A stretch of 64,000 nucleotides of DNA from Octopus vulgaris (GCA_951406725.2 OX597817.1:44020001-44084000); one strand, 5' to 3'; positions 783 through 59,680 are shown, counted from the first letter of the stretch. The notes: generated from the letters alone by a model not told the origin. Translations and numbers: made by a program.

Positions 783-1209
783 TATGAATAGAACAGAGTA
801 TAGAAGTGAGGTGAGAGAATAAATGTTTATTCAATTTGTTTACAATAGTTTCATAATCTTGTTAGTTATATAATAAATGTTGCATCAACATTTGCATGTA
901 ATACAAAAAATACATATAAATATATATGCGTACACCCATATAAACAAGAGAACTAACAGATTAATCTTCAGAATGATTCATGGTAGTCCGAAACATCAGG
1001 ACTACCATGAATCATTCTGAAGATTAGTCTGTTAATCTGTTTGAACACTTGTATATATGGGTGTACACACATGCATATTTATATATTTTATAAATGTGCA
1101 AATGTTATGTAATATTTATTATATAACTAACAAGATTCTGAAATAGCTGTAAACAAATGGAATAAACATTTATTCTCTCACCTCACTTCTCTTATCTGTT
1201 CGATTCATA
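783..1209. repeat. Fold-back inverted repeat with ~200-bp arms next to a (TA)n tract, followed by a unique tail
   Basis: agaagtgaggtgagagaataaatgtttattc pairs with gaataaacatttattctctcacctcacttct; centre tggtagtcc-gaaacatca-ggactacca. Confidence 0.9.
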
Positions 1210-1616
1210 AACATTCTCTCTACCATTTGTAAGAGTGGGTACTTATGTAAGTATATGTGCATGCAAGGTTCAGGGAATAAGTGAGCTGGTGGCCCTATTT
1301 CCCTATTCATAATTATGAGTATGTACAAGTATAAATATGCATATCATTATTGACTGACATGTTTACAAACATACTAACTTGAAAATGATCCCAAATACTG
1401 AATTATTTCCCTCCTAAATATGCACATAAACTAGCAATTTGTTACTTTCACACATCCACAGATTAAGGACACAAAATCTTTCCTATTTCTCTGAAGAATG
1501 GTTTATTCCAAAATGAAAGAAAGTTTAAGGAATTTTATATTTTATAAGTGGAAGTACATTTCATCAAAGAAAAATTATCACTAGTTTTCCTGGGTTTTTG
1601 TGTTCTTATCTACATG

Positions 1617-1653
<37 letters not shown>

Positions 1654-1658
<5 letters not shown>

Positions 1659-1822
1659 TGTCACTAAAATGACTGAGATTACTAGTCAGTACCAGTATTG
1701 CTAGAAATAAGAGCTAAACAACTCATAGCCACAAGGCTTCGTGTGGGCATGAGTTTTTTTAACTATTATTTCTAGCAATACTGGTGCTGACTAGAGACCT
1801 CAGTCACTTTAGTTACATATAT
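1654..1822. repeat. Fold-back hairpin with ~80-bp arms in (TA)n, followed by a short tail
   Basis: ctagtcagtaccagtattgctagaaataa pairs with ttatttctagcaatactggtgctgactag. Confidence 0.88.
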
Positions 1823-2010
1823 ATTTCTGCCTTTCGATTGTAAAATTGCAAATAAGCCACCCTTATTATTTAATATTATATATGTATATATCATATATAT
1901 GTACATACATACATACATATGCATATATATATATATATATATACACACACATACAGATATATTTATACATATACATATACATATAGTGTGAATATATAGA
2001 CACACACATA

Positions 2011-2057
<47 letters not shown>

Positions 2058-2111
2058 CCACTCGGTGTTAAATTAATGGTATTATTAAATTAATATCGAT
2101 TTTTCACCCTC

Positions 2112-2172
<61 letters not shown>

Positions 2173-2199
2173 TATATATATATACATATATATATGTAT

Positions 2200-2570
2200 A
2201 AAATTAGAATAAAACGACCGTTTATCAATTCAAAATGAACAATTAAATCACACCATCTAGAAAATTACATATAATAGAAATATTAAAATTAAAATAACAA
2301 TAAAATGTCAATGATTAAGTAAATTGCAAAAAAATAATAAAAGCGTATATAATTGGTATATATGCATGCGTATATGTATATAGGTATATATATGTACGTA
2401 TGTGTTATTCTACCAATTATATACGTTTTTATTATTTTTTTGCAATTTACTTAATCATTGACATTTTATTGTTATTCTAATTTTAATATTTCTATTATAT
2501 GTAATTTTCTAGATGGTGGGATTTAATTGTTCATTTTGAATATAAAAAAAGGTGTTTTTTTTCTAATTTT
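2200..2570. repeat. Fold-back inverted repeat with ~160-bp arms in (TA)n; tail to about 2670
   Basis: caccatctagaaaattacatataatagaaatattaaaatt pairs with aattttaatatttctattatatgtaattttctagatggtg. Confidence 0.9.
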
Positions 2571-2667
2571 TTATATATGTATATTATATTGTATGAAATT
2601 TGATTTTGTATTTCTACATTGAAATTTTTTCCCTGTAAGTTTGGATTTTATTCCCTCAAATAATAAT

Positions 2668-2708
<41 letters not shown>

Positions 2709-2709
<1 letters not shown>

Positions 2710-2850
2710 TATACTAGCTATCTCAATATGGCTAACCACTAAGGGTGGGTGTTTGCAAATACCATAAGGGTACAGAAAGTGTACCTAAAGCCAGCTGGGG
2801 ACGATGATCTCCTGGGGCTGTGGTTAGCCATATTGAGATGGCTAGTATAC
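2709..2850. repeat. 30-bp inverted repeat enclosing a decayed hammerhead-like loop; tail to about 2903; flanked by (TA)n
   Basis: gtatactagctatctcaatatggctaacca pairs with tggttagccatattgagatggctagtatac. Confidence 0.85.
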
Positions 2851-2917
2851 TTTACGTTGTCAAGCAGTTACTGTTTACATCTCGTTCAGAGATTTATTAT
2901 TGCTATATATATATATA

Positions 2918-2955
<38 letters not shown>

Positions 2956-2999
2956 TACATATATATATATATATATGTATGTATATGAATATACATATG

Positions 3000-3054
<55 letters not shown>

Positions 3055-3554
3055 GTATGGAAACAAAACAGTTTGATTCAAATTTGTTAGTAATCCAAGA
3101 ATTGTTTCAAGTGTGATGCTAATCATCAGCCATTTTGTATATATAGTAACACACACACATGTATATATATATATATATACCTATATACATATACACATGC
3201 ATATATATATACACACACACATATATATATACATAAATACACACACACACACATACATATACATATATATGTATGTGCATGTACATGCATGTGTGTGGAG
3301 ATGCTTATACATATGCATATGGGTTGGCATTATAAGGACAAATGTGAGAAAGCTGAATTTCTAATTTCCAAAATATCAGAATGTTGAAAAATCAAATTGC
3401 TAAATTTCAAAATATTTAAAAATCTTTAAATCCCCAATTTTTCCCTAAAATATCTTAGGGATAATTAATAACAAAAAAAAAATAGTCTTAAAAAATATTT
3501 AATTACAATTTTAAAAATATTATTTGAGCACATATCATAACAATAAATTTTGAT

Positions 3555-3920
3555 ATAAATGTTTTAAAAAATCTTTAAGTAATGAAGTTCAGAAACTAGG
3601 CAAAATATGTAACAGATAATGAATAAGAACAAAGAGAAAATATTGTTTTTATCTTACATGGGTAGTTTAATGCTTATATTATATTTCAAGAAAGGACAAA
3701 GTAAAAATTGTTCAAAACGTGATTTTTATCTCTGAATTCTCAGATTATTTTTTTCTTATATTTGATATGGGGATTTTCCAAAAAATTTACTACAAGCATT
3801 AAACAATCTACATAAGTTAATACAATATCTTCTATTTACTTTAATTTATTGGCATCACCTTATTTATTTTGCCAAACTTCTCAACTGCATTGCTTCAAGT
3901 TTTTTAAAACATTTATATGT
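3555..3920. repeat. Old, diverged inverted repeat
   Basis: atataaatgttttaaaaaa pairs with ttttttaaaacatttatat; gtttaatgctt pairs with aagcattaaac. Confidence 0.6.
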
Positions 3921-4841
3921 TTTGAGCAAATAGTGATAACCTTTTATATTTACTTTTTTTTTATGCTATGTTAGAATTACAAAGGTAAGTGAGATATAGT
4001 GAACAAATAAATTCTCGCATTATTGGATGTTTTCTTTTGCTTCTTTCAAAACAAATATAAGCGAAACTAAAGACAATATTTGTATATTGCTTTATGCATT
4101 GAAGAAAGATAAACAAGAACCTGTTCTCGGTCTATCAAAATTTAGCCTTTTAATCATTTGGTATGTATTTATTGAGAGACAAGAAGGATAATAATCAAAA
4201 ATGAAAGAATTTAAAGAATGAACCCATATAAGCATGGAAAGAGATGTAAGATCGAATGGAGGAACTGAATTATTTAAGATCTTGTCAATGTCTATGATAG
4301 AGTTTCCCTGTAATACACTTTCACTTTTTTCCTACAAGAAAATATGCTTACTCTATCTTGCTTGCCTATGTTATTCTAAAGCAGCCTATTCGAAAATGTA
4401 AATATGCTAATATAAATTTTTCATAAACTGACTTTTCAAGCACTAAGTAAATGAATTTTAAAACACATTTTTCTTATTATTTTCCCCAAACTTATTTCAA
4501 AATTTGCAGTTTGAATCTTTTCACATTATGGCATTTAGAGATTGGAGTTTTAGCTCATTCAGACTTTGGGGATTAAGGTTTTTAGGTGTTTTGAAATTTG
4601 GCAGCTTATGTCCACATTTCTCATATTCAGCCTGATGACCAGCAGCAATATACATATACACATGTATATATACACAGACACATACATGCATACATACGTA
4701 TATGCATGTACATATATCTGTATGTATATAAACATACATATAAGTAGATATATTATATATCTATACGCACACACATACATATATATGTATACATATACAT
4801 ATATTCATATATATATATATGCATACATGCAAATATATATA

Positions 4842-4886
4842 TATGTTTTAGAGTGTGCTTCTTTTAAGTTATATGAACTACTGATG

Positions 4887-4917
<31 letters not shown>

Positions 4918-4957
4918 GTAGTTCATATAACTTAAAAGAAGCACACTCTAAAACATA
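4842..4957. repeat. Perfect ~42-bp inverted repeat around a (TA)n loop
   Basis: gttttagagtgtgcttcttttaagttatatgaactactga pairs with tcagtagttcatataacttaaaagaagcacactctaaaac. Confidence 0.9.
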
Positions 4958-4969
4958 ACAACAGTAATA

Positions 4970-5592
4970 ATATTTAGAATGGTGTCTGTTATGGCTGGTC
5001 ATTGGTTTAGCACCATTAAAGTTCTTAGCTGTGTAGGCAACTTGTCAAACTCAAATGGCTAGAGGCACATAAACTCTCTACAACCGGAGAGAAGACAGCA
5101 CCATGGTCAGTTAGTTTTTTAAGCAAAAATATCCAGAACGAACTCTACAAGTAAGTTTTCCGGTGGGGCAGGGCTATCCTCCTTATATTGATTCCAGCTG
5201 TAATGGTTTGCAAAGCTGGTAGTATGCTACTATTTGGCAAATGGGGAATTCCAAGCTGGCAACAGAAAATACCTCTGATGAGAGCATTGACTAAATACTT
5301 CTTTTCTGAAGTTTAGAAAAGCCCCCATGTCAAGCAAGTTTTACAGGGTTATTGCCTTCTAGGCCAAGCAAATAAACTCCAAAAAAGAAGTGTTTAGTCA
5401 ATTCCCTCATCAAGGATGTTTCTTGTTGCAAGCTTGAAATTTCCCAATTGTTCCCCAGAACTGACCATGATGTTTTCCTCCTTCCAGTTATGAAGAGGTT
5501 AAGTGTCTTTGGCCATTTGAGTCTGATGAGTCGCCTATACAGCTAGGTGCTTTACTCTTTGATCGGCCATAACAAACAACCTTCTAAATATA
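4970..5592. repeat. Diverged ~620-bp fold-back element
   Basis: Nested complementary blocks: tatttagaa/ttctaaata, actcaaatggc/gccatttgagt, catggtcagtt/aactgaccatg, ttgactaaatacttctttt/aaaagaagtgtttagtcaa. Confidence 0.8.
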
Positions 5593-6037
5593 TATATATA
5601 TCTTGCATTGATATCATGATTGTGTTTAACATTCAATTATTTTATCCAGCTTAGTAACCTGTATATATATAAACATGCATGTTTTTATATAACTCTCTTT
5701 TCTTCTCCCTCCTGTTTGTCTCATTTAATTTGTTTCCTATTCTGTTTCTTTTATTATCTGTGAGAGGTGTTTTGATTTGCAATTTTGCATTCTATAAAAT
5801 TCTTGATAATGTGATTATTAGACAGTGTATTATTATATAATTATACAGATATATTCAGTGCCATTATGATGAAGAATTATTATTGAAACACTGCAATAAA
5901 TGAATATCTGAAATATCACTGGTACCATTTGTCTAATTTTGATATTTCAAATGTATTTTGCTTGCTCCATCCATTATAGCTTGTATCATGCTTTAGGCAA
6001 TATTCTATGTGGAAGTGCATTTCGGATGTGAATTTTT

Positions 6038-6040
<3 letters not shown>

Positions 6041-6094
<54 letters not shown>

Positions 6095-6117
6095 GTATGC
6101 ATGTATACATGTATGTG

Positions 6118-6152
<35 letters not shown>

Positions 6153-6184
6153 GCATGTATACATGTATGTATGTATTTATGTAT

Positions 6185-6229
<45 letters not shown>

Positions 6230-6355
6230 CATATATATATATACACATGCATGCATATATATATACATACATATATATATATATATATATACACATACAT
6301 GTATACATAATTATGCATATAGATGCATACATATATATATCTATATGCATATTTT

Positions 6356-6386
<31 letters not shown>

Positions 6387-6418
6387 ATACATATATATAT
6401 ATATACATACATATATAT

Positions 6419-6457
<39 letters not shown>

Positions 6458-6458
6458 C

Positions 6459-6535
<77 letters not shown>

Positions 6536-6571
6536 TACATATATATATGTATATATACTCACATAAGATAC

Positions 6572-6602
<31 letters not shown>

Positions 6603-6622
6603 CATATACAATATATATATAT
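6041..6622. repeat. Long compound (TA)n/(TATG)n/(TACA)n microsatellite, one of dozens in the window
   Basis: Direct reading; source of the spurious YIYIY ORFs. Confidence 0.97.
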
Positions 6623-9600
6623 ACCTCTTCTGTATATCTACTCCTCACATATAAATATGCACTATTGTATCTGTACGCTTTATCTATCTATCTACCTATT
6701 TATCAAAATTTTAACCGAGTCTCAAGCTAATACATTCCTTGTGCATATTCTCTCGTTCATAAATTTTATTTGTTTATTTGAAGTAATTGTTTGTTTAAAT
6801 TTATTGTTTATTTGAATTGACTCTATATATAGGTGTATATATATAGGTGTATATATATATATATATATACCCCCACATACACACAAGTATACATTAATAT
6901 GTATGTTCATACAAAAACTTTATACTCCATATACATTGAAAATTAATCATTTACTACATAATTGCCATATTTTACATTTTAGCAATATCATATTGGACAT
7001 ATAGACTATATGTGAGATATAGACTATATTATAAGTGGTTTGATTTTGAAATCACATTTTATTTTAGCAAAACCTGTCCTCATAATCAACACTATAATGT
7101 TTTTATATCTTCTTTAGATATTAATACTAATTTTCTAAGTGTATTTGGAATAGATATATCAAAATGTTGGTAATATTAATCGGTACTGCATTATTTTGTA
7201 TCTTAAATAATTGCCTCTATCATATTTATCTGATTGATTTCTTAAAAGAGTCTGGTATTCACAAGAAATTCTGCATAATTCATTACCTACATTATGGGAA
7301 TTAATAACAAATACACAATAACAATCACAATGACAATAGTAATGGGAAATAATTTTGCTTCAGTCAGGTAAATAAAGAAAAGAACAGAAAATAAAAATGA
7401 AATAAAAAGTAAAGCTAGGATGAAGGTATTAAACCACTGTAAACATAGACAAATAAATTCAAAGATTAGCTGTATAATTGAACAAATAAAAATAGTAAAC
7501 ATGGACAGTCTCAATTCTTAAAATACAAAAGCTTTTTGTATAAGAAACATGTCAATAATTAAACAATTAGAATGTAAAAATATTTGTTAATGCAAAGGTA
7601 ATTGAATATTATTTTGGCATACATAGTCAGGATATTATGATTATAATTTACTGACCATTTTAATCTGATAATATATTCATTTCTTGACAGATAATTGTAC
7701 AAATTTAGTTTCACTAGAAGTATCTTGAAAAGGTGCTTTATCTTTCTTTTACAAATCATGTTGACTGAAAGTTTCCAGTTAAATGACTTCAATGCTTACA
7801 CCATTAATTTAGATATGCTTTGTGGCTTTTTAAAACTTTTCTCACTCGTTCTTGCCACTAATAGCTTAGTTTAACTAGCATACTCCTGTGTGCATAAACT
7901 GAAACTTTTCCCTTTCCTTCTGCATTCAACATTTTCCACACAAAACTCTAACTTCTTTGAAGCCACATACATTACCTATGAACAAACTCTTAGAAAACAG
8001 CTTGTGGTGAAGACGTAAATTCTCCACAAGATCTCTTTGAAAACAGTTCCCGTTTGGGTCAGGAACTTAACTTTAAAATTAACATCTGAACCAATTTAGA
8101 CACTAATAGCTCCTTGTCAAACAAAAATTATGGTTAAGTAATGTACTCATAGAAAGTTACAAGAGTTATATATTAACATGAATTCTAATCACATCAACAA
8201 ATGCAGAATATTACTGTAGCAGAAGAATACCCGAAATACCTTGTGGCTAAATTTTCTAGTAGAAAGTATTCATATAACAATACTCCAAGAAAGACTGGCT
8301 AAAGCATTAACTCACAAAACAAAAGAACCAGAAAAAGAAATTATCGTGTTCAACTGATCAGTTAAAATTAATCTAACATTCAATATAATCTCACAAAAGT
8401 ACTCTAGTAATTGACATATATCACAATCTAGGATATATATGACAGTTTTCAAAAATCATTGGAGCAGATATATAAGTGTGTTTGAAGGTTTTGACCATGT
8501 CCCAAGAAATAAAAGACTATGCTATTAGTTTTCTACTTCGTAAGTAATGCCCCCTTCATAGGTTAGTGTCATGTAAAAGAGATATGATGAGCTAGAAATG
8601 TGTTAATTAGAAGGAGTTTGTGACAGAATATAGAAGAGAATATTGTAAATAATTGTGGGGAATACAAGATATGGATTAGTTTTCTTAAAGGACAATTTAT
8701 ATCAAATTGACAAGTTTAATTTAACCAAACAGTTATACAAAAGGAATGGTTAGATAACATCTATAAAAGATAAATAATATACTTCAAAAATATGGAACAA
8801 AGTGAAATGTAGACAATAGCTGGAATGTGATGCGTAAGGATTGCCAAGCTTAGTAAAAACCAATAAGTAAAGTTCACATAGCTAGATCCAACAGACATGC
8901 CCTACTGTACTGATTAATATGGCAAAGGCAAGTAAAAAAAACTGAGAACATAAAACAGTCAATTTCAAGTTCTTCATGTATACTGAGTGAAAAAGTGCTA
9001 CGAGGTGGTGATGGAAAGAATATCTGTACCAAACAAAACTTGAGAAAAATTAGGAGTAACATGAGAATTAAACCTCTCAAATGACATTAAACATGTTTGA
9101 GGTACATGTGATATGTCAAACTTAAATTTTCAAAACTGACAAAAGCTACATCATTCAATTTGTATCTCAAAAAATTCTACTTTTTGAAATTTCCTACTCT
9201 CTACCACTATCATCTAAACACACAATATCCTTCTTGTCTTTCCTTGTCTCACTTATAACATCTGCCCCCACCCACCCAGAACTTATGCTAAATCCAATTT
9301 TTTCCACCTAAATGTGCAACTCCTAAGAAGTCATTCCCTATTAATGTTTCTTTCTTAAATCCCTATTAATGTTTCAAAATCATACAATTGCAAGGTCACC
9401 AATCATATAAACTGCACTATAGCTTAGAAAGGCTGCAAGAATTATTTTTCTTCTTTGAAATAATAAATATTACTGATATGAATATTAATATCTTTATATT
9501 TCATATATTAATAAAAAAAAAGCAATATTTATTTTTTAGTAAAATTCTCAAAAGCATTTTAAAGATATAGAAATAATATAAAACAAAATCAAAGTGCTGA

Positions 9601-9838
9601 AACAAAATAAAAAAATAAAAAATTAATATTATTAATAATCAAATTCATTAACTAATCCTCCAGTTTCATGCCATGTATACACAGCAAAAGTGTAGAAGTA
9701 ACTGAAACTACCAGCAACATATTTTCATAGAAGTAGATGAATAAATCTAAACTTTTCAAACTATCTATAGGTTAATGACTTGAATTGAGACAGTCCAGAT
9801 TAAATGGTAAGTAATTTATCTACAAAAAGACTACCTAC

Positions 9839-9999
9839 CTCACGAGATTCTCTGGTTACCTCTACAAGATGCCACTTGTTGTCATCAAATCGTTGATTTG
9901 GGGGATTGATATTAGCATCATACTTTCCAGATCCGAGGTTTACCGATAGGTCCACACCCCCACCAATGAGGGCCACATTAAAATATTCCCCAAGGTCAC
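9839..9999 (-). CDS. NRXN: alpha-neurexin exon, LNS2 middle (161 nt, phase 1-0), ending at the position of vertebrate splice site 2
   Basis: ttttcattttatag|GT GAC CTT...CGT GAG|gtaggt; encodes (G)DLGEYFNVALIGGGVDLSVNLGSGKYDANINPPNQRFDDNKWHLVEVTRESRE, similar to neurexin [50 protein letters not shown]. Confidence 0.93.
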
Positions 10000-10048
10000 C
10001 TATAAAATGAAAAGAAAACAGAACATAAATATGTAAAGCATAATATTA

Positions 10049-10105
<57 letters not shown>

Positions 10106-10164
10106 TGTAATAATAATAATGTTATATTATTATTACATAATATTAGTACAATTAGTATAACAGC

Positions 10165-10545
10165 ACTGGTTGAGAAATGGATTGGTCTGGTTACGGAGAA
10201 AGAGCAATGAGCAAATTTCATATCTGTGCATTTTCTGATTTTCATTCAAATATGTGGTACCCATTTGTCAAGCATTTTTGGTTTTCTGAATGCAGGCACT
10301 TTTCTGGCTAACTTGAAGTTCTTTTGCCAGCTCTCAAGTGGTTTTATGTGGATCTTTCTCAATGATGGTCTTTAACCATCGTCAATGACATATGGGCTTC
10401 CACTACACTCATGATCTTCAAGGACCAGGTCTCCACTGTGAAATTGTTCAAACCATTTTTAAGCTGAACACTCACTGGTCATTTCCTCATCAAATGTTTT
10501 GTTGATATCGTGAGCAGTTTCTCCAGCTTTGCTTGACAGTTCCAT
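10165..10545 (-). pseudogene. Mariner transposase fragment (Hsmar1/cecropia-like N-terminal half), decayed
   Basis: Minus-strand pieces AGETAHDINK..KWFEQFHSGDLVLEDHECSGSP..MLDKWVPH..NENQKMHRYEICS..RNQTNPFL include the WVPHEL motif; stops and frameshifts present. Confidence 0.85.
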
Positions 10546-10910
10546 TTCCAATGATTATAACAACGGTGATAAAATATCAATGTTAATTTATTGATTCATT
10601 TGGGCAAGTCTGTGTCTGTATTATCAGACAACTGCAAAAAAATGTTTAAAAAATTCAAAACTCAGCAAAAGTCCGATACAAATTTTTCATGGTTCAAAAT
10701 GTTGGTATTTTATTCTTTGTGAACTGTAAATTTTCCCTGTCTAAAACATTCATACCTTGTCTCTGATGGCAGAATACCCAGTGCATGGACATGCTAACCT
10801 ACCACTTGGGTTATTCTAGAAGTTGGTGTAATACTTCAAATTTACCTTACCCTAGTTAAACTATTCTAAATGACTTGAGATATTCGCTCTGCCATGGTTT
10901 TGCTTATTCC

Positions 10911-10984
<74 letters not shown>

Positions 10985-11068
10985 GTATATATATATGTGT
11001 GTGTCTATATATATACACACACACACATATATATCTTCAATATCATTTAAAAAACACAGGTTTATTAT

Positions 11069-11952
11069 ACGTAGTCTGATCAATAAGTATCCGGAGTGTT
11101 GCCATAGTAATGAAGCTAAAGCACAAAGAGTAAAGTTGCTTGGCACAGATTGACTTTTATCTCTGCTGTGCATGTGCACTAAGTTTGAACATTCTAGCTC
11201 ACTTCCACTGTTTACAGCAGTGCTTGGAAGGAAGGTGTGTAGCATGTAATCATGGCATTGACCACAAGAGAGAAAGTTGAGCGGAGAATCTGCATCAAAT
11301 TTTGTCAAAAGTTTGGCGATAACTGCTCAGAGGCCTATACAAAGTTTTCAAAATTTTCCATTGTTCATGACACAATTAAGGAGATCTTGTGCAACTGAAA
11401 CCCAAGTGGCTTTTTGGTCAGCTAAAAGCAGTTTTGGCACAAACTTGGCAGACATGTGTTTCAAACCCAAATCTTCAGTGATAACAGATTGAACTGAACT
11501 GTAACTAATCTGCACATCCTCTGATAACTCTTAGATGGTTATTTAACAATTTTCTCTCACAGCTGCAAGCACATCTGTGATGTTTTCCTCATTTCTGCTG
11601 GTTGTGGGTCACCCACAACATTTGTCAATATCAATATTTTTTTGGCCATCTGGACAACTTGTACTCTTGTATGCAGCTCATACATTCCTCTCCATACACT
11701 TTCTGCAACATTGCATATGCCTCTGAGCAGGTATCACTATGACAACTCTCTCTGTCATGGTCAATGCGATGATCACATGCTACACAGCTTCCTTCCAAGC
11801 ACTCTACTGTACACTGCAGAAGTGAGCTAGAATGTTAAAACTTATTGTGCATGCACAGCAAAGGTCAAAGTCAATCTGTGCAAAGCAGTTTCACTCTACG
11901 GGCTTTAGCTTCGTTACTATGGCTACAGTCCGGATACTTATTGATCAGACCT
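11069..11952 (+). mobile_element. Internally deleted mariner element with ~200-bp terminal inverted repeats
   Basis: gtctgatcaataagtatccgga...tccggatacttattgatcagac ends; internal ERRICIKFCQKFGDNCSEAYTK resembles the mariner N-terminal HTH. Confidence 0.85.
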
Positions 11953-30177: not shown

Positions 30178-30241
30178 ATAACATTTTAAAACCAGTCGTA
30201 TTAAAATCACTACGGTTCGTGTAATCACCATCGAAAGTTGA

Positions 30242-30366
30242 TGAGTTCGAAATAAATATTAGGTTTTAAAAATGTCTTCTCAAATATCCCATGTTAAAAT
30301 GACGACAGCAAAAGTCTAGTATATTATATATATATACATAATATATATATATATAAATATAAATAT

Positions 30367-30450
<84 letters not shown>

Positions 30451-30567
30451 TTTGAAATAAATATTAGGTTTTAAAAATGTCTTCTCAAATATCCCATGTT
30501 AAAATGACGACAGCAAAAGTCTAGTATATTATATATATATACATAATATATATATATATAAATATAA

Positions 30568-30651
<84 letters not shown>

Positions 30652-30743
30652 TTTGAAATAAATATTAGGTTTTAAAAATGTCTTCTCAAATATCCCATGT
30701 TAAAATGACGATAGCAAAAGTCTAGTATATTATATATATATAC

Positions 30744-30816
<73 letters not shown>
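30242..30816 (+). repeat. Three near-identical ~200-bp units, each ending in (TA)n
   Basis: tgagtt(c/t)gaaataaatattaggttttaaaaatgtcttctcaaatatcccatg at about 30242, 30447 and 30648. Confidence 0.92.
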
Positions 30817-30824
<8 letters not shown>

Positions 30825-33293: not shown

Positions 33294-33859
33294 TATATAT
33301 ACACACATACATATACATACACATACATATATACACACATACATATATATATCGCTATGGTCTTACCACTAAGTGCTAAGACCATAGCGGATCTATTTCT
33401 AGCATAAGGGAGTCCACATAGTGGTTTCCCTCTAATATGTATTTAATGCAATTTTACTGAACCTTCAGTTTTTTTATATGCTAGACCACTGGTGTGAAAT
33501 CGATGTTAATTAAATTAATATCTAATTTCTCGCCCTCATTTTAAATTTATATATATGTAAGAAAGCGGATTTGAAAATGCAGAGCTCTTTTAAAAATGCT
33601 TATTGACTTGACCGGTTTCACTTTTTTAAAAAAAGATTTTCAAAAGTAAGATGTAAAGGCTTTGTGTAGCCTTTGTTGTGTTAAAAACTGGTAATCATAG
33701 ATGTATTAAATATGATTTCTGTATATATGCTTCTATACAATCATGACTTTTGATGAACTTATAAATAATTATGAATTTATTTTACTACCTATTTTGAACA
33801 CTTTTATGTAAACTGTTTAAACAAAAAGCCCTCTTAACATTTTCTTATCACTGTACTGG

Positions 33860-48229: not shown

Positions 48230-48349
48230 ACCACACACACACACACACACTTCTATTATCATTTAACAGTTCCAAATAAGCATGATGTACAGCTATACTT
48301 TCTCTTCACTCCACTATCATACACATTTTCTTCTAACTGCTATTCTTTA

Positions 48350-48801
48350 TACAGTACTGTGCAAAAGTCTTCGGTCACTTTCAACTATTGTAAATTTCTA
48401 CTAATTGCCATCTTATAAGTGGATGTTTCGCATTGCGTTTTTTACAGATGGAACATTGGCCCTGTTGGAGTCATTTCCATACCTAATCATTATATTTTGT
48501 AGTAGGGCTTCTGAATGAGAGGGGAAGATGCGAGACGACCACCAAAAATGGCCATGCAAAAGTTTTCGGCCACCTCACATAAGCCAATCGAGATACAGTG
48601 TTTTAAAATATAATAATGTCTATAATGAAAATTATTCAGAACTCCTACTACGAAATATAATGATTAGGTATCGAAATGATTCCAACAGGGCCAATGTTTC
48701 GTCTGTAAAATTCGTAATACGAAACATCCTCTTATAAGATGGCAATTAGTAGAAATATACAATAGTTTTAAGCGGCTGAAGACTTTTGCATGGTAACTGT
48801 A
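48350..48801. mobile_element. Tc1-type MITE with ~165-bp TIRs and TA target site
   Basis: TAcagtactgtgcaaaagtcttc...gaagacttttgcatggtaactgTA; arms complementary through to ttctgaat/attcagaa. Confidence 0.88.
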
Positions 48802-49264
48802 TTAAAATGATTCTTTGCAGACCCACCATTTCATTTTAGATATCTTGTCATTTCAAGTATTATAACTCAGTACTTGTCACCTATAATTTGTAGACTTGAT
48901 ATCATTCTTATCGTTATATATTTTCAGATACTTGATAAACAACAGATTTATAAGCGACCAAAACTTGTCGAAGACGTGTTACACTCTCTCTCACACACAC
49001 ACATGCACGCCCCCCCCCACACACATGTTATGGAGAACATTCCTTCTTTCTTAGTGGTAAAACCATAGAGGGTCGACTTCTAGCATAATGGATGTCTACT
49101 TAGTAGTCATCCCTCTTGTATGTATGTATGTAATATAATTTTTCTGAATCTTCAGATTTTTCTATATGCTAGACCACTGGTCCTAAATTGATATTAATTA
49201 AATTAATATTCAATTTTTCCCCTTATTATTTTAAATTTATATATATATATATATATAAATATAT

Positions 49265-49720
49265 ATATATTTAGTGAAGGGAAGAAATGGAGCCGAACGA
49301 AGATTCTACAAAATTCCTTTTTATTATTTTCTACACATGTTTCAAAGGCTGCAAATTCCCAAATTCGGATTGAATAAGGAGACCATTCTGCAGCTTTCTC
49401 TTCAGGAAAATCCAGGAATTTAAAATCTCAAAACAAATGCGCAGCAAGCTTTTCGAACAAAACGCTCCCTAGGAGCCCATGGTAAAAATGGCACCATTTT
49501 TACCATGAGCTCCTAGGGAGCGTTTTGTTCGAAAAGCTTGCTGCGCATTTGTTTTGAGATTTTAAATTCCTGGATTTTCCTGAAGAGAAAGCTGCAGAAT
49601 GGTCTCCTTATTCAATCCGAATTTGGGAATTTGCAGCCTTTGAAACATGTGTAGAAAATAATAAAAAGGAATTTTGTAGAATCTTCGTTCGGCTCCATTT
49701 CTTCCCTTCACTAAATATAT
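49265..49720. repeat. Near-perfect 456-bp palindrome (2-nt loop, one mismatch seen), tail to about 49870, flanked by (TA)n
   Basis: Centre catggtaaaaatgg-ca-ccatttttaccatg; ends atatatttagtgaaggg / cccttcactaaatatat. Confidence 0.97.
49574..49659 (+). ncRNA. Type I hammerhead ribozyme motif with intact core; mirror copy on the minus strand at 49326-49411
   Basis: AUUUUC-CUGAAGA-GAAAGCUGCA...UGCAGCCUUU-GAAA-CAUGUG-UA/GAAAAU; 6-bp stem I, 10-bp stem II with one mismatch, GUA cleavage triplet. Confidence 0.75.
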
Positions 49721-49870
49721 AAAACTTCAATTATCCGCACTAAAGCAAGGGGGCGAAAGCCCATGGTCGTAACCTCAACCGTGTCTTTTCTGGTGTGATT
49801 TTTGCTACACAGGTATCGGTTAAATTTTGAATAATCCGTAACAAGATAATTCATTTATCCATTTCATTAT

Positions 49871-49904
<34 letters not shown>

Positions 49905-51589
49905 CAAGCTGTGGGTAGAATTTGCTATGTATGTATATAATTTCTTCAATGTAGTGTAGTTAGCAAGTACTATAAAATCGTAACTTTAAGTTAACTTCGT
50001 CGAATTTTTGTAGAGTCAAACGTATTGGGCATTAAGTAAACGTACGCATCTGCCACCCCAGTCTCTCTCACTGCATACACTAATACATGCATAATTTATA
50101 TAATTTTGTATTAATCAACGCTCAGTACTCTTGAACGCGAAAGATTAGAATAAAGATCTCATAAGCTCATGGTATTATGGAGGCTATAGATTTTGGAACG
50201 CGAAAATAAAATTAGAATAAATAGCAAGTATTTAATATTGATGAAAAAGGACTGATAGAAATCAGAAATCAGAAATCAATGCTGTTTGTGACGTAATATA
50301 AATTCCAATATTTACATTGCTGATGGTGATGGTGATAAAATATATCTATAGTATATTTAGTTAGCCGGAAGGAAATCGATTGCTGTGTACTTATTTGAAA
50401 TATTATTAATTTATTTTTAACATATTCTTTTTTTATTTGTATCAATAAACCATATGTAGATTTTTCGATATACACTAATAGGTAGCATTATCAGTTACTA
50501 ATATTAAAGTATAAAGCTACCCATCCACATATCAAATTAGCCGTAGACAGTCTAATTTCTCTAAGATATGCTAAGTTTACTTCAGAAAGTGTTCTATACT
50601 TTATATCTGTTTAGTATTTCTTTCATCACTATCTGGGCAAGTAGACTAAAGATTATGTTTCACTGAAGAAGTGTAATACGATCGAAACATACCCGGAATT
50701 GTCTTCTGTACTTTCTGGAATAACTAAAATGATATTATTCAGTGATTAATTTTGCTTTTTCCTCACTATATAATTATTTCTAATCAGATTTTGAACATAC
50801 GCTAGATTAAAATTCGGTTACACCAACATGGTTGTTATTTTACATGCAAATGGCATCCCTGATTAATACCTCAAAGGAATTTATTCTAAAAAGATGTGTA
50901 CATATGCTGTCTGTGCTTAGTACATCCATAATTCTCTGAGGACAAGTTTCATCACACATAAGCAAACAGATACGTACAATCAGTGTGATGAACAGATTGA
51001 AAGGAGTTAAATACTGTTACATGAATCAATGCAGCAGGAACGTATTAACAATTTGCAAAAATGCAGTTAACAACTCCGTTACTTAAAGAAACTGGGACCT
51101 GTAAATAGATCTTTTTCTTGAAATAAGCGGTAAACGGTGTCATAAGTTACATCCTTGGCCCCAGCAGACAAAATGGAAAAGGTGTTGGCCCGGAGGATGG
51201 CGAGGGATTATTTTGTGCTAAAAGCTGTGTCTTGTAAAGAACTAAGAATTGCTAAATCATCAATAGGCCAAGGAGGTTTTGTTCCACTATTCTAATAAAA
51301 AAGAGAGGATGGACTTTAAAGTAAAATATATGTAATATTTCAAAAAGACTGTCCTTCTAAACAAACGGATGTCAGTTCCTAAGCCAATGTGCAATAAATA
51401 TTAAGATATTAGGTCAGGTGAAAACAAAGGCAGCAATTGTATACTTTCTTCGCCAAAGACTTAAAATCATAATTCCAATAACACTGTATTATGAACTATG
51501 TAATGTTTTTGGATGAAAATAATTAATCAGATAGTCTGTTTTTCTTTTATGGTGTGCAGAATACTTCCAAAACTAATGGGGTTCATATG

Positions 51590-51900
51590 ACTGATGTTCA
51601 GACAAGTCAACGTTTTCTGGGAGAACGTAAGGGTTGAAGGAATTCCAGGGGGAGAGTTGCAGCTACGGGAAGTAAGGATCAGGAAAAGTGGTTTGTGCAG
51701 ATTCGCAAGTGTGAGATGCTATATAGGTGAAGAGAGGTTAGGCATGGATGGAGTGTGTGGGAAGAAGTGGTGTGAAATTAGCTACTTTCGAGGAGAGGAC
51801 TTTGTTGTAGGGATATAGATGGAAGAGCGAAGAGATTGCAAGTCTGTTGGTTAGAATTTCTAGTGTTCGGGGATGCATCTTTGGCATCAATCGGATGGTT
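51590..51900 (-). mobile_element. Very old LINE (CR1/Jockey/L2-like) ORF2 C-terminal remnant
   Basis: Minus strand LEILTNRLAISSLFHLYPYN...PWNSF weakly resembles the LQPLSHRR..SLFYRY..LWNSLP tail. Confidence 0.35.
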
Positions 51901-52033
51901 TTTCTTTTAGGTACGGTCAGTGATGATAGTGTAAATGTCCAAGATATGGGCGCATATTTCAGGTGCAGAGATATAGATAGGGAGAGAGAGAGAGAGGAAG
52001 GGGGAGAGAGAGAGGGGAAGGGAGAGAGAGAGG

Positions 52034-52066
<33 letters not shown>

Positions 52067-54074
52067 CAACAGATAGAAGATGAAATATTTCCTAAACTTG
52101 AAGAGAAAACTTAGCTTTCGGATACAGTTTTGTCTATGTTACGAGTGCGAGGTCAGCAGGTAATCCTCAGAGCATTTGCAACGAGCTTAACGACATGAAT
52201 CGCATGTTGTCCAACACTTGGTGGGGAGGTAAGATATAGTTTTGTATGTTTGGTGCACTGTTTGTATTTTTGTATTGTGGAAAAACTGTACATTATCATA
52301 ATTTCATTGGAAATTATTTCAGTGGTCTTATTTCCTGGAAACAATAATGGACTGACGCTAAATAACTAGGCTGCATAAGGAGGGCGCTTGTTTATGTAAC
52401 ATTAAGGACTGTTGAAAAGAGTCGACGGAATAAGAGCGAATGTTGTTAGAGGTCACAGTAAGTAGGTCGTTAATGTGCCAGATGAAGATTGTGTGTGTGT
52501 GTGTGATGTGTCGGGGGTGGGTGTGAATAACTGAAACCGAATTGATAGATTATCGGCCAACCCATGGGTTGGAAATTTTCTGTCAGATGGAGTGATCTGA
52601 AAGATGAACCAGCTGAAGGCTGGAGGAGGCCAAAGAAACTAAGTGTCTCTGCTGTTTGAACGTTATGAATTGTGGTTAAGTTCCAGTCTAGCCTTGAACA
52701 AGCCTATGAGGAGAAGCATTGCAGCCATGACCTGCCTGCCCTTTTCCACGCACAAAGGACATCTAGGACTACATTATTCAATGTGTCCTTTTCCCTTTTT
52801 AAGACTGTAAGGGATAATTTAAGGGAAATTTTGCTGTTATTTTTTTTAGGTCGAACAATCATGTCACTTTGATATTCATAAGAAATATATCTTACAATGG
52901 TGCTTTTAGGAAAATATATAAAAACAACTTTGTAAAAAAGAATATTACAATACATACGAGGATTGTGTATTCGTAGCGCTATTCGTTCAACATATTGAAT
53001 ATCTATAGTATATTTCTTTATACTAACATTTAGAATTTTAAAGCAGATGCTTGAAGAAATCGGAACCATATGTATTCAGACACTTAACTACATCAAAAGA
53101 GACATTGAATGACTTTATTATTAACGGAAGTAAAGGTCAAGAGGTAAAAAACAAAATATATGTCATTGTCATACTGAAGTTATCCCCGCTGAATATCAGA
53201 CATCAATCTAAACAGGACAGTTATACATTCAGGATAAAAAGTATTAGCCTTCGGGTTGAAGTGAATTTTCCCAGTAAACACGTTTTAGAAACGACATCTA
53301 AACAATAATCAATAATGGATATTAAAAAAAAACAGACAAACAAAAAAACTCTATCTACAGATTTAGATTGCTCGCAAAGAGATGCACAGAACAATTGTAG
53401 TATAAATAAGATTTCAAAAGATCTTGTCGGAGAAAAAAAGTGATAATTTACAGACACCTCACGTATGAAAGTAAGTGAAATGGGGAAAAAAAAACTAAAA
53501 ATTTGGGAGAGGTTTAACCCACATAATTTGTAGCTGTTTAAAAACATTATCCAAGTACTCATTGCCTTCTCAGTAACAGAATACCCAAGAATCAGGAGTT
53601 AAACCAGGCAAAACATGAAGTCTACCGCCCGTCTATGATCACTTTTGCATTAGTTTCTTCTATGTCCAAGTTATTGATGGTTGTTATTTCTCCAGGTGTT
53701 GAAAATATGTTAGCTCAGCTACTTCGTGTATCGGTGAGGTAGTGAATTGCTCTTTGAGCAGTCATGTTGCTCAGGCCTGCAGAGAGCTAGACAAGAGTGG
53801 CAATACAGTTGGAGAACACGCGCTTTATCGGGAAGACTTTCAGTGAAGCGTCATCAATGCGCCGCGTGCAAACGATACGCGATGACATACTTAAAGTATA
53901 TCAATATTAGTCACAAATAAATGGCTAAATATCTTGAAACACAAAGAATATTTATTTGTTTATTTAAACATTTTATTACAAACTGTGATATAAGTTTTAC
54001 TATCTTGTCAACATGATCGAAACAAATTGAAATTTGTAATGAAACGATCACATATATATATATATATATATATA

Positions 54075-54334
54075 TATGTTACGACGACGAGGGTCCCAGC
54101 TGACACGATCAACGGAACAGCTTGCTCGCGAAATTAACGTGCAAGTGACTGAACCCATAACGTAGTTCTCTGGGAGATTCAGCGTGACACAGGTACAACT
54201 CATTTCTGCCCGCTGAGTGGACTGGAGCAACGTGAAATAAGGTGTCTTACTCAAGGACACAACGCATCGCCGGGAATTGAACTCACGACCTTACAATCGT
54301 GAGCTGAATGCCCTAACCACTAAGCCACACGCCT

Positions 54335-54340
<6 letters not shown>
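54075..54340 (-). mobile_element. tRNA-derived SINE with CpGs intact
   Basis: Minus-strand head ggcgtgtggcttagtggttagggcattcagctcacgattgtaaggtcgtgagttcaattcccggcga with A and B boxes. Confidence 0.85.
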
Positions 54341-54402
<62 letters not shown>

Positions 54403-57400
54403 TATATACATATATACACATATATATATACACATATATACATGCACACACACACACACGCACACACACACACACACATATATAGCTTCGCTTACTTACA
54501 TAGATACATCCTCTCGCACACACTCATGTACGCTCACTCGCGTTTGCGTTGGAGTGTGTGTGTGTGTATGTGTGTGTGTGTAAAAGCGTGCTTATCGATA
54601 CGTGTAAAGCGTTTACGTCAAGGTACTGAAATTTTGCATATAAGTACATATTGTATGTCAAGGATAAAGCGGTTTTGTCATGAATAATTATTAGTTTGCA
54701 GGAGCCCCCTTCCTTATTTTCCTTCTCTTGCAAATATGAATCGATAGATAATTGCTAAATCCTATTTCAAAGGGCCACTATTGCACATGGAAATCAAATG
54801 TTTACAAAGAGGAAACCGAACAAGTCATTATTTTCATATACATTAGCAACTAATGGCTTTTTTTTTTCCTGTTTCTATTTTCATTGTCTCGGCCTTTGGT
54901 TGTTGAAATGCTTTGCCGCTTTACTTGAAAACAATGATAGAATTAGCAGTCTGTTACTAATTTTGATGTTTTTTATGCGTCTCAGTTAAAATATATTGTT
55001 ATTTGGTAACAACCGTCTGAATAAATGCATTCGATTTATATGCATTTTAAGAAAATATATCTAACATAACGTAGCACAACGGGAGATGATATATTTCATT
55101 CGTTCACAACTACTATCATTCTTCATATCCGGCCTTTATTATCTTGGTTTTATGCATTCGACATTTACTAACATTGTAACACTTCTCTTTTACTTCCAGC
55201 CGCTATTTCTCATCATTGCTCTGCTCTTTGACCTACCACCATTCTTTCTGTCTGGTCATATTCCCTTTCACCTTTCTTATACTCTTCATTTTTATATACA
55301 ACTTTCCAGCATACTGGTCCTTATCGAATTATTCTCTTTTCTATACGACATACAAACGTATTCTATTCTCTGAACTATATTGATTTGTGCAGACGTAGAC
55401 TATCACTAGTTTCTTCGGACTCCGGTGATTTATATTGAATTCACTACCATATTTTATACATTCAGACACAACTACCATAGTTCCAGTTCCATATATTATG
55501 TATTTACTACATGGTTCTATACGTATATTCTGTCATTTGTAGAACCATTCCACATCCGTGGCTATTACTTTCAAGGTTTTATATACTTGGTAATTAATAT
55601 CATAGTTCCATTATTCTGTCAGCACTATCACTCTATCTCTCTGCTTTATTGTACACTGTATCTGTGCTGTACAAATAGGCTATTAGTGGCATTAATCAAT
55701 CAATCATTCTTTTAGTATATCATGTGTTAATTGTGAAATAGTCAAATGTTTAACCCTTCAAAGTCAATGAATGATCAATTCTGTTGACGCTGGTGAGTTA
55801 GAGATACGATTAGTGACTATTATGCTTATCTCAAAAGCATTAGCGATATAAATATGATAAAATATAGCTTCAAGTATGAATGGAAACCCAGTTATAGAAG
55901 CGACAGCTCCCAGTTTCCGATTCTATGATTATAATATGCGAAATTCCATTGCTATGCACCGTAAAAGATCATAATCTACTTATTTCGTGTTAGTCTTCCG
56001 AGTAACAAAATAAAAAACAAAAAAACCCTCTCAGTTGTTTTCTTCACGCTTCAGAGCTTTCCCCCCAGAATCTGTAACTGCACCACGCGTTTTTGTTTTA
56101 ACGAAACTCACAAATACATTAAACTGACTCTTGAACGCAGAAAGTGATCCGTTAAACTCTTTAATTCGATATTTTCTCTTTTCCTGATTATAAAGATGAA
56201 AAGTTAGCCTTTGAAAATTACATGTTCACTTCGCCAATTTTCTCTACAACTTAACATCATAAGAGTGTCCTTTCCTCAAATAAACGCAATTTCCAATTTC
56301 GTAGATGGAAGAATAACTACTTCCAACTTACCGGAACACCATTATAGAAATAAAAGAAAATTAACCTACAAAATAATTGATAGATTTCTACACATTTACG
56401 AGGATACTATTACGGAAATAAAAGAAAATTAGTGTAAAAATTATTGAAAGCTTACACACATTGACAAGTGGTTGAGAGAAGGTAGTAGAAATTTGTAATG
56501 ATTCTTGAATTTGACACAGATCAAAGCAAGATTGAAGGAATGGACCAGGTTAGTTGGATTCTATGTCTTTCTCTCTGTCTCTCTCTCTTTATCTCTCTCT
56601 CTCTTTATCTGTTTCTCTCCCTCTCTTCCTCTCTGTATATCTCTCCCTCTCTCAAGCATATTCACAGAAATTGATCAATTTCCTAAACTCAGGAACTAAA
56701 GAAATAATTGTAAGGCTATTTTCCTTAATAAAATAGTTGAGCGTATTTTCGATAAACTAATGGTTTATATATTGATTCATTGATTCTACAGAATTAAATC
56801 CTTTAATGCTATGAGTAGGTGAAGTAAATGTAAATTGAGATACGAACTGCTTTCTCAGTTTTCCTATAAAATAGGTTACCAGTTCAGTATATTATTTCCT
56901 AGCAGTTGTAGCATATCCCTTTCTGCCAGTTATATGGTCATTCATGTTTATGGAATGTGTGTCTTCTCGACATAAAAGTTAATGGAGATTATAAACTAAA
57001 GAAATGACAGTAGTTTCGTGATTTAAAGAGATAATATTTGACTACAAAAATTTATACAACCTTTTAAACTATTTTTATTTTCGTTTAAAAGAATTTTTCA
57101 ATTGTGTCATGTTGAAATTGAATAAACAATGTCGCGAACTAATAACGCTATTTTTTATTTAACAATGAAGAAAACCACATTTTCAACAAAATTATTATCA
57201 TGAAAATATCATAAACCCTTTCTGTTTTATTTCTCTAAATTATAATGACTTCGTAATTTTCCGTTTAGACAATTCAAAAAAGAAAATACTAACTGAAAGA
57301 TTCGCATCGTAGAACATAATTACATTTTAACAACTTTTACAAAAATATTGCTTCAACAATCAGTACCAAGTATGCCACTAACACACCGAGTACTGAGACC

Positions 57401-57831
57401 AGTTTTTAATCTAATTTCTGTTATAATCTCAAACTAAAAATTATGCTCTCATTCTAATAGGCAGTTGTTACTGTCCCAAGACAGTTTTTGTTCATAAATG
57501 ACAGCAATTTTTGTAAAATATAAACTAAAGCTATTCCATCGAATTTTAAGAGGAATTAGTTGAAGAATGATTTGAAAAGCTATTTTAAGAATATGCTTTT
57601 AATTGTACACCCTAGATAATTGATATAAAAATTTTGGAATTTACAGGACCATAATATTGTAAGAACATTTAATTACTTCTTAAAAATGTTTACAAGAATA
57701 AAGGTTTCCTTAAAATTGAGGAGAAATAAGTGTTTGACGATTAACACATTGATTTTATAACTTACTAAGACATCTGTGACTATAAAATCCATCATAATTA
57801 TCTTCTTGAGCAAATGAAATATACTTCTTGA

Positions 57832-57873
<42 letters not shown>

Positions 57874-57879
57874 ACATTT

Positions 57880-58225
57880 AAACTTTCACTCGTTTCAGTC
57901 CTTGGATGTACGGCCATGCTCGGGTACCGCATTGAAGGGTTACTCACGGAAATCGACCCCGGTACTTGTATTTTATTGCTTGGTATTTGTTCTGTTGGTC
58001 TCTTTTGTCAAACCACTAAGTTACGGGGACGTAAGCAAGCTAACATCGGTTGTCAAGCGTTGATAGGACACAAAAACACAGAAAATACATACATACATAT
58101 ACACAACAGTTGTCTTTCAGTTCTCTTTACCAAATCCACACACAAAGTTTTGGTCAGCCCGGGGCTATAGTAGATGATACTTGCCCAAGATGCTAGGCAC
58201 CAGGACTGAACTTGGAACTATGAGG
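57880..58225 (-). mobile_element. SINE (family of 21225/38200)
   Basis: cactcgtttcagtc...ctaagttacggggacgtaa...tacttgcccaag. Confidence 0.75.
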
Positions 58226-58605
58226 CTGACACGTAAATTTCATGTTTGTATATATAATTTCGATTATTTATATAATACTATAGTTTCATGACTGTCAACT
58301 TACGTTCTTACCAAAAGGTTAGCCATTGCTCAAGTAGCAAAGCGCCCTGTGCATACTTTTCTACACAGCTATGTCTGTTGATTGCTAAATTTGCCTTTAC
58401 ATTTTTTTCGGCATTAAACCATTTGATATTAAGTTGGCTGTTATGAGTATTTGATATTATATAAATAATAATAAATCTTCTCTATTACCTAATTTGTGAG
58501 TGCCAGTTCTTTTCTGACTCATGAAAAATGAGACAACTAGAAACTCACACACGTATAGGAATAAAACGGTTTTGATTGTGCAGATTAGTAATAATAATAA
58601 GACTT

Positions 58606-58961
58606 TGTTGTATTTAGGAATGGTCATTTTGCCAGTTTAGCCAAAAAAAACCAAAAAACACACGCACTGTATATATGGTGTTAATTTGCTTCAGCTTTAT
58701 TTATTTTTTACATTAATCTTAATCTTATTTCGGCCAGAGTTCTTTCGTCACACTTCTGTGACCTCATCAGTGGTCCTTTGCTTTCTTCACACAAATAAAA
58801 AAGAAGAAAGCAAAGGACCACTGATGAGGTCACAGAAGTGTAACGAAATAAGATTAAGATTAATGTAAAAAATAATAAAGCTGAAGCAAATTAACACCAA
58901 ATATATAGTGCGTGTATTTTTATTGACTAAACTGGCAAAATGACCATTCCTAAATATAACA
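58606..58961. repeat. Fold-back inverted repeat with ~170-bp arms containing a hammerhead motif; short tail
   Basis: tatttaggaatggtcattttgccagtttag pairs with ctaaactggcaaaatgaccattcctaaata. Confidence 0.92.
58732..58776 (-). ncRNA. Minimal type I hammerhead ribozyme motif on the neurexin sense strand
   Basis: GGACCA-CUGAUGA-G-GUCACA(GAAG)UGUGAC-GAAA-GAAC-UC/UGGCC. Confidence 0.68.
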
Positions 58962-59022
58962 TCTGTTTCAACACACGATTTCACATCAAGAATCTTGCAA
59001 AACAATATATAAACGTAATAAT

Positions 59023-59680
59023 AAGAAATGAAGGAATTGTTCCTTAGTTTGTTGATATACAGATATAGAAAGTTTAAAAATTTTTCGAGATGAAATGAAA
59101 TGGAATGAAATGACGCAAAACGAGGTAAAATAAATAAAATATTCGTTTTTAGTTTAAAGAATTTGTATCACGCTTAGGAGTGCTTGTGCCTTTACAAAAT
59201 AGAGGAAGTAGGTTTATATGAGGGATGGGATGGTACGAATTGAATAGCGCAAAACACTCACTTGACATTTTAAGGCTAACTATGATAGCGGTGTCAATCG
59301 TCGTGCTCATTCTACTGCTTGCGTATTGGTGTTCACTGATGACCGAACATCAGAGAGAACATAATAATACACACTATCGTAGTTAGCCTTAAAATGTCAC
59401 GTGACTGCATCGCTCTATTCAATTCGCGTCACACCATCACAGCTTTCATATGAATTTACTTTTCTGTATATAAAGGAAATTAAACTTCTCCCTTTGGTAG
59501 AGGTAGAAGCCTTGTCAAGCGCTAGAAAAATCTTAAATGTAATGACGTAAATATTTTATTTTATTTTATTTTGTTTCACTTCATTTCATTTCATTTCAGT
59601 TCATTTCCTGACAAAATTTAGACTTTCTCTACCTGTATATAAATAAACAAATAAACTAGGGAACAATTTCTTCCTTTCTT
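59023..59680. repeat. Diverged ~660-bp fold-back element
   Basis: tgacattttaaggctaacta pairs with tagttagccttaaaatgtca; (gaaat)n pairs with (atttc)n; aattgttcc pairs with ggaacaatt. Confidence 0.85.

Follow-up and report, generated by a model that had tools for sequence, protein, structure and literature searches.

Why do seven inserts of mutually different sequence in one stretch of Octopus vulgaris DNA share a single layout, an inverted repeat followed by an unpaired tail on the right? The stretch, 64,000 nt long and hereafter called the window, had been read in an initial annotation as holding a candidate new class of hammerhead-bearing, non-autonomous retroelements. Self-alignment of the window recovered the inverted repeat and the right-hand tail at all seven inserts (7/7), as described there. 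We consider it highly probable that the seven hairpins are 5'-truncated insertions of Penelope-like elements (PLEs) together with non-coding hammerhead repeats that likely share the enzyme, and that both were likely inserted where a TA-rich repeat had been cut, with copies written from either side of the break.

Three of the seven window families are 3' ends of coding PLEs, three are non-coding monomers, and one (F1) was assigned to neither kind. F22 (~2196–2668; arms 2180–2589, tail to 2668) corresponds to the 3' end of a probable Hydra-clade PLE, F49 (49264–49869; arms 49264–49721, 99% identical, with a 148-nt tail to 49869) to the pLTR and tail of a young PLE assigned to the same clade, and F58 (58606 to ~59017; arms 58606–58961, tail to ~59017) to the 3' end of a probable Neptune-type PLE. 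F16 (1654–1872; arms 1654–1822, tail to 1872), F27 (2709–2903; arms 2709–2753 and to 2850, aligning at 2709–2739 and 2820–2850, tail to 2903) and F33 (33353–33549; a short hairpin at 33353–33389, tail to 33549) are each part of a non-coding monomer, which repeats in tandem in F16 (~335 nt) and F27 (~355 nt) and head-to-tail in F33 (~540 nt); in the F33 window copy the left arm stops short of the family's short end. F1 (783–1232; arms 783–1209, 23-nt tail) belongs to an old PLE-type family. The initial annotation had drawn this first insert out to 1340; its arms and a tail to ~1232 held up, but the tail is common to other copies only up to that point, and 1233–1340 matched 0 of 40 scored candidates.

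Open-frame reading of the 64-kb stretch identified no host-gene exon in the window. An Rfam scan of the window returned no hammerhead family among the best 150 of 265 matches, which were sub-threshold, nearly all of microRNA type, and located on hairpins and TA repeats. Several further repeats were observed. Two more diverged relatives of the F33 tail (2058–2130 and 49050–49249) both end at (TA)n and have no inverted arms. The segment 4842–4957 is palindromic to 97%, is centred on a (TA)n run and has a CTGATGA word where that run ends; in 4970–5591, old inverted repeats are nested in one another and CTGATGAG occurs twice (5275 and 5523); and 30241–30817 is a 201-nt tandem repeat of 2.8 copies with a TA run in every unit.

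Searches of the window's genome (2.8 Gb), each with 40 candidates scored and 30 fetched, revealed that each of the seven inserts represents a family scattered through it, the right ends of which are sharp while the left ends differ by hundreds of bases. The numbers of first-look candidates were 332 (F1), 958 (F16), 2383 (F22), 2153 (F27), 2538 (F33), 2122 (F49) and 2248 (F58), so that the tails do recur elsewhere, as the initial annotation had supposed. The family samples described below are the 30 best-scoring loci out of these hundreds to thousands, with the tail always part of the query. Copies with a (TA)4 word no farther than 30 nt from the right end numbered 30/30, 28/30, 23/30, 16/29, 12/30, 12/30 and 8/30 in the seven families, compared with a background of 8.8% (460/5223) in distal flanks. 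The proposed adjacency to (TA)n was thus confirmed at the level of the families, but the F58 insert in the window adjoins (TAA)n instead of (TA)n.

All seven families carry a type I hammerhead with a short, usually palindromic stem III; the cleavage sites given here are predicted ones. Hammerhead cores, which the initial annotation had placed in several inserts, are retained in three of the seven window copies (F1, F49 and F58) but not in the other four. In F16, F22, F27 and F33 the ribozyme has been truncated away from the window copy and sits upstream in longer family members. F49 holds a complete type I hammerhead at 49574–49659 on the plus strand, with its core at 49580 and cleavage predicted after 49653; the left arm mirrors it on the minus strand (core at 49405). 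In F58 the left-arm hammerhead is intact (58770, minus strand) and the right-arm one is disrupted by a deletion (58821, plus strand), and both arms of F1 contain a degenerate type I hammerhead whose stem II is very long (cores at 1017, plus, and 971, minus). As had been anticipated, such motifs exceed their frequency in shuffled sequence: a strict type I descriptor matched the window twice, in both arms of one insert, against 0.07 ± 0.26 matches in 100 shuffles, and there were 40 bare CTGANGA words against 23.4 ± 5.1 in shuffled sequence. The strict descriptor missed the ribozymes of F58, F1, F27 and F33, and these were recovered with more permissive patterns and by eye; variant cores occur in F33 (mostly CCGAUGA) and F27 (partly UUGAAGA). 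Palindromic stem III and short stem I are likewise features of the minimal PLE hammerheads described by Cervera and de la Pena (2014; PMC4209133), whose truncated copies resemble ours in carrying opposite-strand motif pairs 100–700 bp apart.

Long copies of F49 continue into a GIY-YIG domain, and a 907-aa open frame was retrieved by protein search. The full-length F49 locus L246, flanked by TA repeats at both ends, consists of an inverted pLTR with tail, a direct pLTR with tail, the 907-aa ORF, a 3' UTR and a pLTR without tail. The 148-nt tail is the stretch between the pLTR and the start of the ORF and ends ~47 nt before the first ATG. Both L246 and L248 display the anatomy of a PLE, with pLTRs, an inverted 5'-truncated copy and a one-ended tail. 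Sequence reading of the 907-aa frame gave a C-terminal GIY-YIG and RT motifs. The protein had 420 relatives at E ≤ 0.001, of which the 120 listed span 570–814 aa and include one labelled GIY-YIG endonuclease; the best species-named relative among the matches listed was from Argonauta. Many related frames of 890–934 aa were also observed in the genome, including a second family ~64% identical with many 899-aa frames. In L246:3213–5933, an Asn/Ser-rich insert of ~200 residues separates the endonuclease from the RT where a cysteine linker would normally be expected. Followed upstream, long copies of F22 cross an AT-rich 3' UTR of ~2.5 kb and reach a decayed ORF that is ~40% identical to that of F49. 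Searches of Pfam with the PLE proteins and of PDB with the 907-aa frame yielded no significant match, so that the clade assignment depends on motifs read by eye.

The Hydra clade is characterized by RWK and DKT motifs, no CCHH, CxxC and CxH flanking a conserved E and N, a CxCX5C linker ahead of the endonuclease, a canonical hammerhead and a (TA)n target (PMC8557442). The F22 ORF has KWK, DKT, CxxC, CxH and the CxCX5C linker; the F49 ORF has RWL, DKT, CxxC and CxH, with the linker absent. Hammerhead and (TA)n target in both families agree with this clade. Judged by these motifs, F49 and F22 are probably Hydra-clade PLEs, with F49 deviating in the linker, and the many related frames of 890–934 aa suggest that several Hydra families have recently been active in this genome. 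Like the described Hydra-clade elements, F49 and F22 combine a C-terminal GIY-YIG without CCHH, the DKT motif, a type I hammerhead in the pLTR, a (TA)n target, an inverted 5'-truncated copy and a one-ended tail. They differ from them in being larger than the usual <3 kb and in having tails of 80–150 nt compared with 30–40, and F49 differs further in its missing CxCX5C linker and long Asn-rich insert. The supplement of Craig et al (2021; PMC8557442) lists Hydra-1_Obim of Octopus bimaculoides with a (TA)n target and a hammerhead, and the hammerhead sequences of F49 and F22 differ from the one listed there. Long copies of F58 reach a C-terminal GIY-YIG, a CX4CxxC linker and CCHH (translations of L058, L049 and L255), in line with the CX2-5CxxC linker and CCHH that mark the Neptune clade. 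This coding evidence covers the endonuclease and the region upstream of it; F58 is probably a Neptune-type PLE, and Nematis is also compatible. The endonuclease is C-terminal in F49, F22 and F58 and hammerheads are present, neither of which fits Naiad, a clade with an N-terminal endonuclease and lacking a canonical hammerhead.

The remaining families are non-coding. F16 repeats head-to-tail with a tandem period of 306–340 nt (four loci, monomer ~335 nt), F27 with a period of 347–359 nt (four loci, monomer ~355 nt), and F33 as a head-to-tail monomer of ~540 nt (two loci), each monomer having one type I hammerhead. In sequence terms these three families are retrozyme-like tandem hammerhead monomers, and they likely borrow the PLE enzyme. 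They resemble the animal non-LTR retrozymes (Cervera and de la Pena, 2020, PMC7229834; Li et al, 2026, 10.64898/2026.07.22.740005) in being AT-rich non-coding monomers, here of 330–540 nt, with a type I hammerhead. What they add, known here from genomic sequence, is a PLE footprint of two ends, inversion and TA target, which the relevant passages of those two papers do not describe. A candidate link between F1 and an ORF was rejected, as the endonuclease fragment upstream of L071 is not contiguous with F1; an apparent cluster of F1 starts coincides with the edge of the query.

Taken together, the ORFs, the monomers and the (TA)4 counts bear out the earlier proposal of hammerhead-bearing PLE or retrozyme insertions aimed at TA repeats. 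The status of a non-autonomous class was lost: three of the seven families (F22, F49 and F58) run upstream into PLE reading frames, and their inserts are therefore stumps of coding elements. Nor is the class new, because the layout is that of a textbook PLE, in which inversion, tail, (TA)n target and hammerhead are already published (PMC8557442). The architecture and the kinds of element are known; the families are new. Autonomous partners had been recommended as a search target; none was assigned to the F16, F27 and F33 monomers.

How the hairpins arise is indicated by their ends. Every family has two fixed 3' ends, 50–150 nt apart and downstream of its hammerhead. Measured from the cut, the short and long ends lie at ~+68 and ~+216 in F49, ~+120 and ~+175 in F58, ~+172 and ~+220 in F27, ~+143 and ~+193 in F16, ~+185 and ~+265 in F22, and ~+165 and ~+268 in F33. 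Among 179 sampled loci of six families (a few duplicates included; three F1 rows, two of them the window copy, omitted), an inverted arm was present within 1.5 kb in 87, which contradicts the obligate inversion originally proposed. The inverted copies paired a long with a short end in 80 of the 87 cases, 4 ran on into the element, 2 were intermediate and 1 was long with long; with the tail in every query, short-with-short pairs were not countable. Truncation affects each arm independently, and the longer arm, by up to hundreds of bases, is one of the two in L006 and L021 and the other in L008 and L017. Inversion joints mostly show a few bases of overlap or filler. Two distant F49 loci, L015 and L026, have an identical inversion joint; here the composite hairpin itself may have been copied. 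The short ends of F49, F22, F33, F16 and F1 coincide with internal TA-like words, and a nicked TA target may pair with the element RNA.

Could each hairpin be the fold-back of one cDNA, produced by a single priming event as an obligate palindrome? Several window copies are near-perfect palindromes (such as 49264–49721) and some joints are located in small internal hairpins, as this would predict. However, the short-end arm often holds sequence that is missing from the long-end arm, and about half of the copies are without an adjacent inverted arm. Independent truncation with either arm the longer argues against simple fold-back; the model is contradicted for copies with a longer short-end arm, possible for a minority, and as a general account very unlikely. 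We give almost no credence to a reading of the inserts as MITEs or Helitron-like DNA elements with subterminal inverted repeats. Symmetric MITE-like repeats do exist in the window, including 59023–59680, an old symmetric terminal-repeat family with 77 candidates that stands directly beside the F58 tail. This segment falls within the surveyed range but does not have the hairpin-and-tail layout. The claim that the inserts lack symmetric MITE structure was upheld for the inserts, whose left ends are variable and right ends fixed. The inserts moreover continue into RT/GIY-YIG frames or hammerhead monomers, which refutes a MITE or Helitron-like origin for six of the seven families, all but F1.

Under the preferred reading of two-sided insertion, the endonuclease would cut both strands of a TA-rich target, reverse transcription would initiate at two internal sites of the RNA, and the two cDNAs would be joined back-to-back, leaving as unpaired tail the stretch between the two start sites. 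A corresponding reaction has been described in vitro for a lizard PLE, Poseidon PAc of Anolis, the enzyme of which cut and extended both strands and began at two internal sites, one at either limit of the tail (Frangieh et al, 2024; PMC11167929). It resembles the window families in its AT-rich target and in the start sites proposed for them.

The right arm of the F22 window copy begins at 2404, the first base after the predicted hammerhead cut of the family. An F22 search designed not to select for this start, with only the last 109 nt as query and the window copy excluded (n = 29), placed 16 of 29 starts at −1 to +17 from the cut, 8 at +18 to +155, 1 at −181, and 4 at −236 or beyond. Against a uniform spread, this wall has a binomial P of ~1e-14 (n = 25). 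The partner arms, window copy included, started at +7 to +14 in 13 of 17 cases, with none upstream of the cut, and 8 of the 53 distinct F22 copies in both samples start at −1 to +1 of the predicted scissile bond. For F49, which has a complete hammerhead, a tail-selected sample had 1/30 starts at −1 to +17 and 20/30 upstream, that is, no wall. None was seen in F16, F27, F33 or F58 in samples picked by arm-containing queries. Relative to its cut, F49 has start clusters at −154 to −166 and at +48 to +59, which may reflect a transcription start and a hot spot for joining.

The position of the wall at the predicted cut makes a self-cleaved RNA the likely template of F22 insertion. Most simply, the cDNA would have run off the end of an RNA that begins at the cut, and joining would have cost it a few bases. 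Alternatively, the wall might mark the pLTR transcription start, short copies being run-off copies of the 5' end of a capped transcript. PLE pLTRs are thought to hold a promoter (PMC11167929), and the F49 start clusters lie at a distance from the F49 cut, but the 8/53 starts at −1 to +1 would demand a base-exact coincidence of start site and scissile bond, and we regard this as unlikely. It is distinctly unlikely, in our estimate, that the wall reflects stalling of the RT on the ribozyme fold, or the use of a TA-like word at +7 to +17 for joining to the TA target. Many F22 starts do fall at +7, +12, +14 and +17 within this TA-rich word. However, the 100 nt around the cut fold with −17.8 kcal/mol in F22 compared with −13.5 to −24.4 kcal/mol in families without a wall, so that a fold near the cut no more stable than elsewhere weakens the case for stalling. 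As to joining, the element's own long TA run 110–150 nt upstream caught 0 of 29 tail-selected copies, and copies starting at 0 have G as their first base, which is not part of the TA word.

On the self-cleavage reading, the F22 template would mostly be RNA already cut by its own hammerhead, on which the cDNA runs off at the cut, and the templates of F49 and the tandem monomers would mostly be uncut or circular RNA. This differs from the lizard reaction in vitro, in which uncut RNA was the dominant template, no reads began at the cut (PMC11167929) and hammerhead cleavage was not needed; F22 copies instead pile up at the predicted cut. PLE hammerheads have been reported to cleave weakly in vitro, with no in vivo evidence (PMC4209133), and F22 supplies a genomic footprint at this point. 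A literature search of titles and abstract openings, with few subscription journals, found no PLE copies starting at a ribozyme cut. With somewhat better than even confidence, we propose that in one Hydra-clade PLE the hammerhead cuts the element's RNA in the germ line, that this cut RNA is the main insertion template and has left its 5' end as a fossil in most genomic copies, that sister families rely on uncut or circular RNA, and that two-sided insertion provides this high-editing genome with thousands of ADAR hairpins, some of them in 3' UTRs.

Hairpin arms inside transcribed host RNAs would pair and attract ADAR editing, and the inserts had been put forward as an unrecognised source of editing substrates. 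We compared assembled contig sets that are probably RNA (X1, X3, X4 and X9) and a DNA-sized run (X15); the contig runs come from other individuals, under two organism codes. On the F49 insert, A>G and T>C together accounted for 29 of the 48 changed places in X1, for 27 of the 74 in X4 and for 9 of the 54 in X15; X3 had no such excess on this insert (6/49). Within the F49 hammerhead, low-depth probable-RNA contigs change at 49645, 49653 and 49658, mirroring to A>G; the mirrored sites 49645 and 49653 (the base at the cut) are absent from the DNA-sized run.

One X1 contig crosses the inversion joint of an F49-related locus, L016. A>G changes at positions 1425, 1426, 1433 and 1457 of this locus were present in X1 and X9, two studies, and absent in X4 and X15. 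At position 1685, A>G accounted for 150/165 by depth in X1, 131/167 in X4 and 194/226 in X9; G was seen in 0 of ~82,000 in X15, where, as in the other sets, reads may derive from any copy of the family. In genomic arms, G was found in 0 of 78–84 at four of the L016 sites and in 1/75 at the fifth. On the strand of the L016 hairpin, an ABCA transporter gene was recognised by an exon match (E = 8e-7), its last exon being read from the sequence; the hairpin follows what appears to be the stop codon by ~450 nt and is likely located in the ABCA 3' UTR. The changes at L016 support A-to-I editing of a PLE hairpin, as seen in probable RNA contigs. The proposal on editing substrates thereby receives first support at one related locus, but such a source is not unrecognised: repeat-directed A-to-I editing in cephalopod 3' UTRs has been reported (PMC9068888), and lizard Penelope is heavily edited (PMC5625713). 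Self-folding repeats are known as strong ADAR targets and the octopus genome as rich in potential dsRNA (PMC9068888, PMC5625713). PMC9068888 nowhere uses the word Penelope in its main text and does not name PLE hairpins as an editing source.

The rule that a long end pairs with a short end constrains models of PLE integration, and it ties retrozymes to PLE enzymes through the anatomy of their insertions. F22 and F49 form a matched pair of Hydra families, one with a wall at the predicted cut and one without, which makes the role of the PLE hammerhead testable. An unusually high dsRNA content has been reported for octopus, and PLE hairpins are a concrete candidate source of it.
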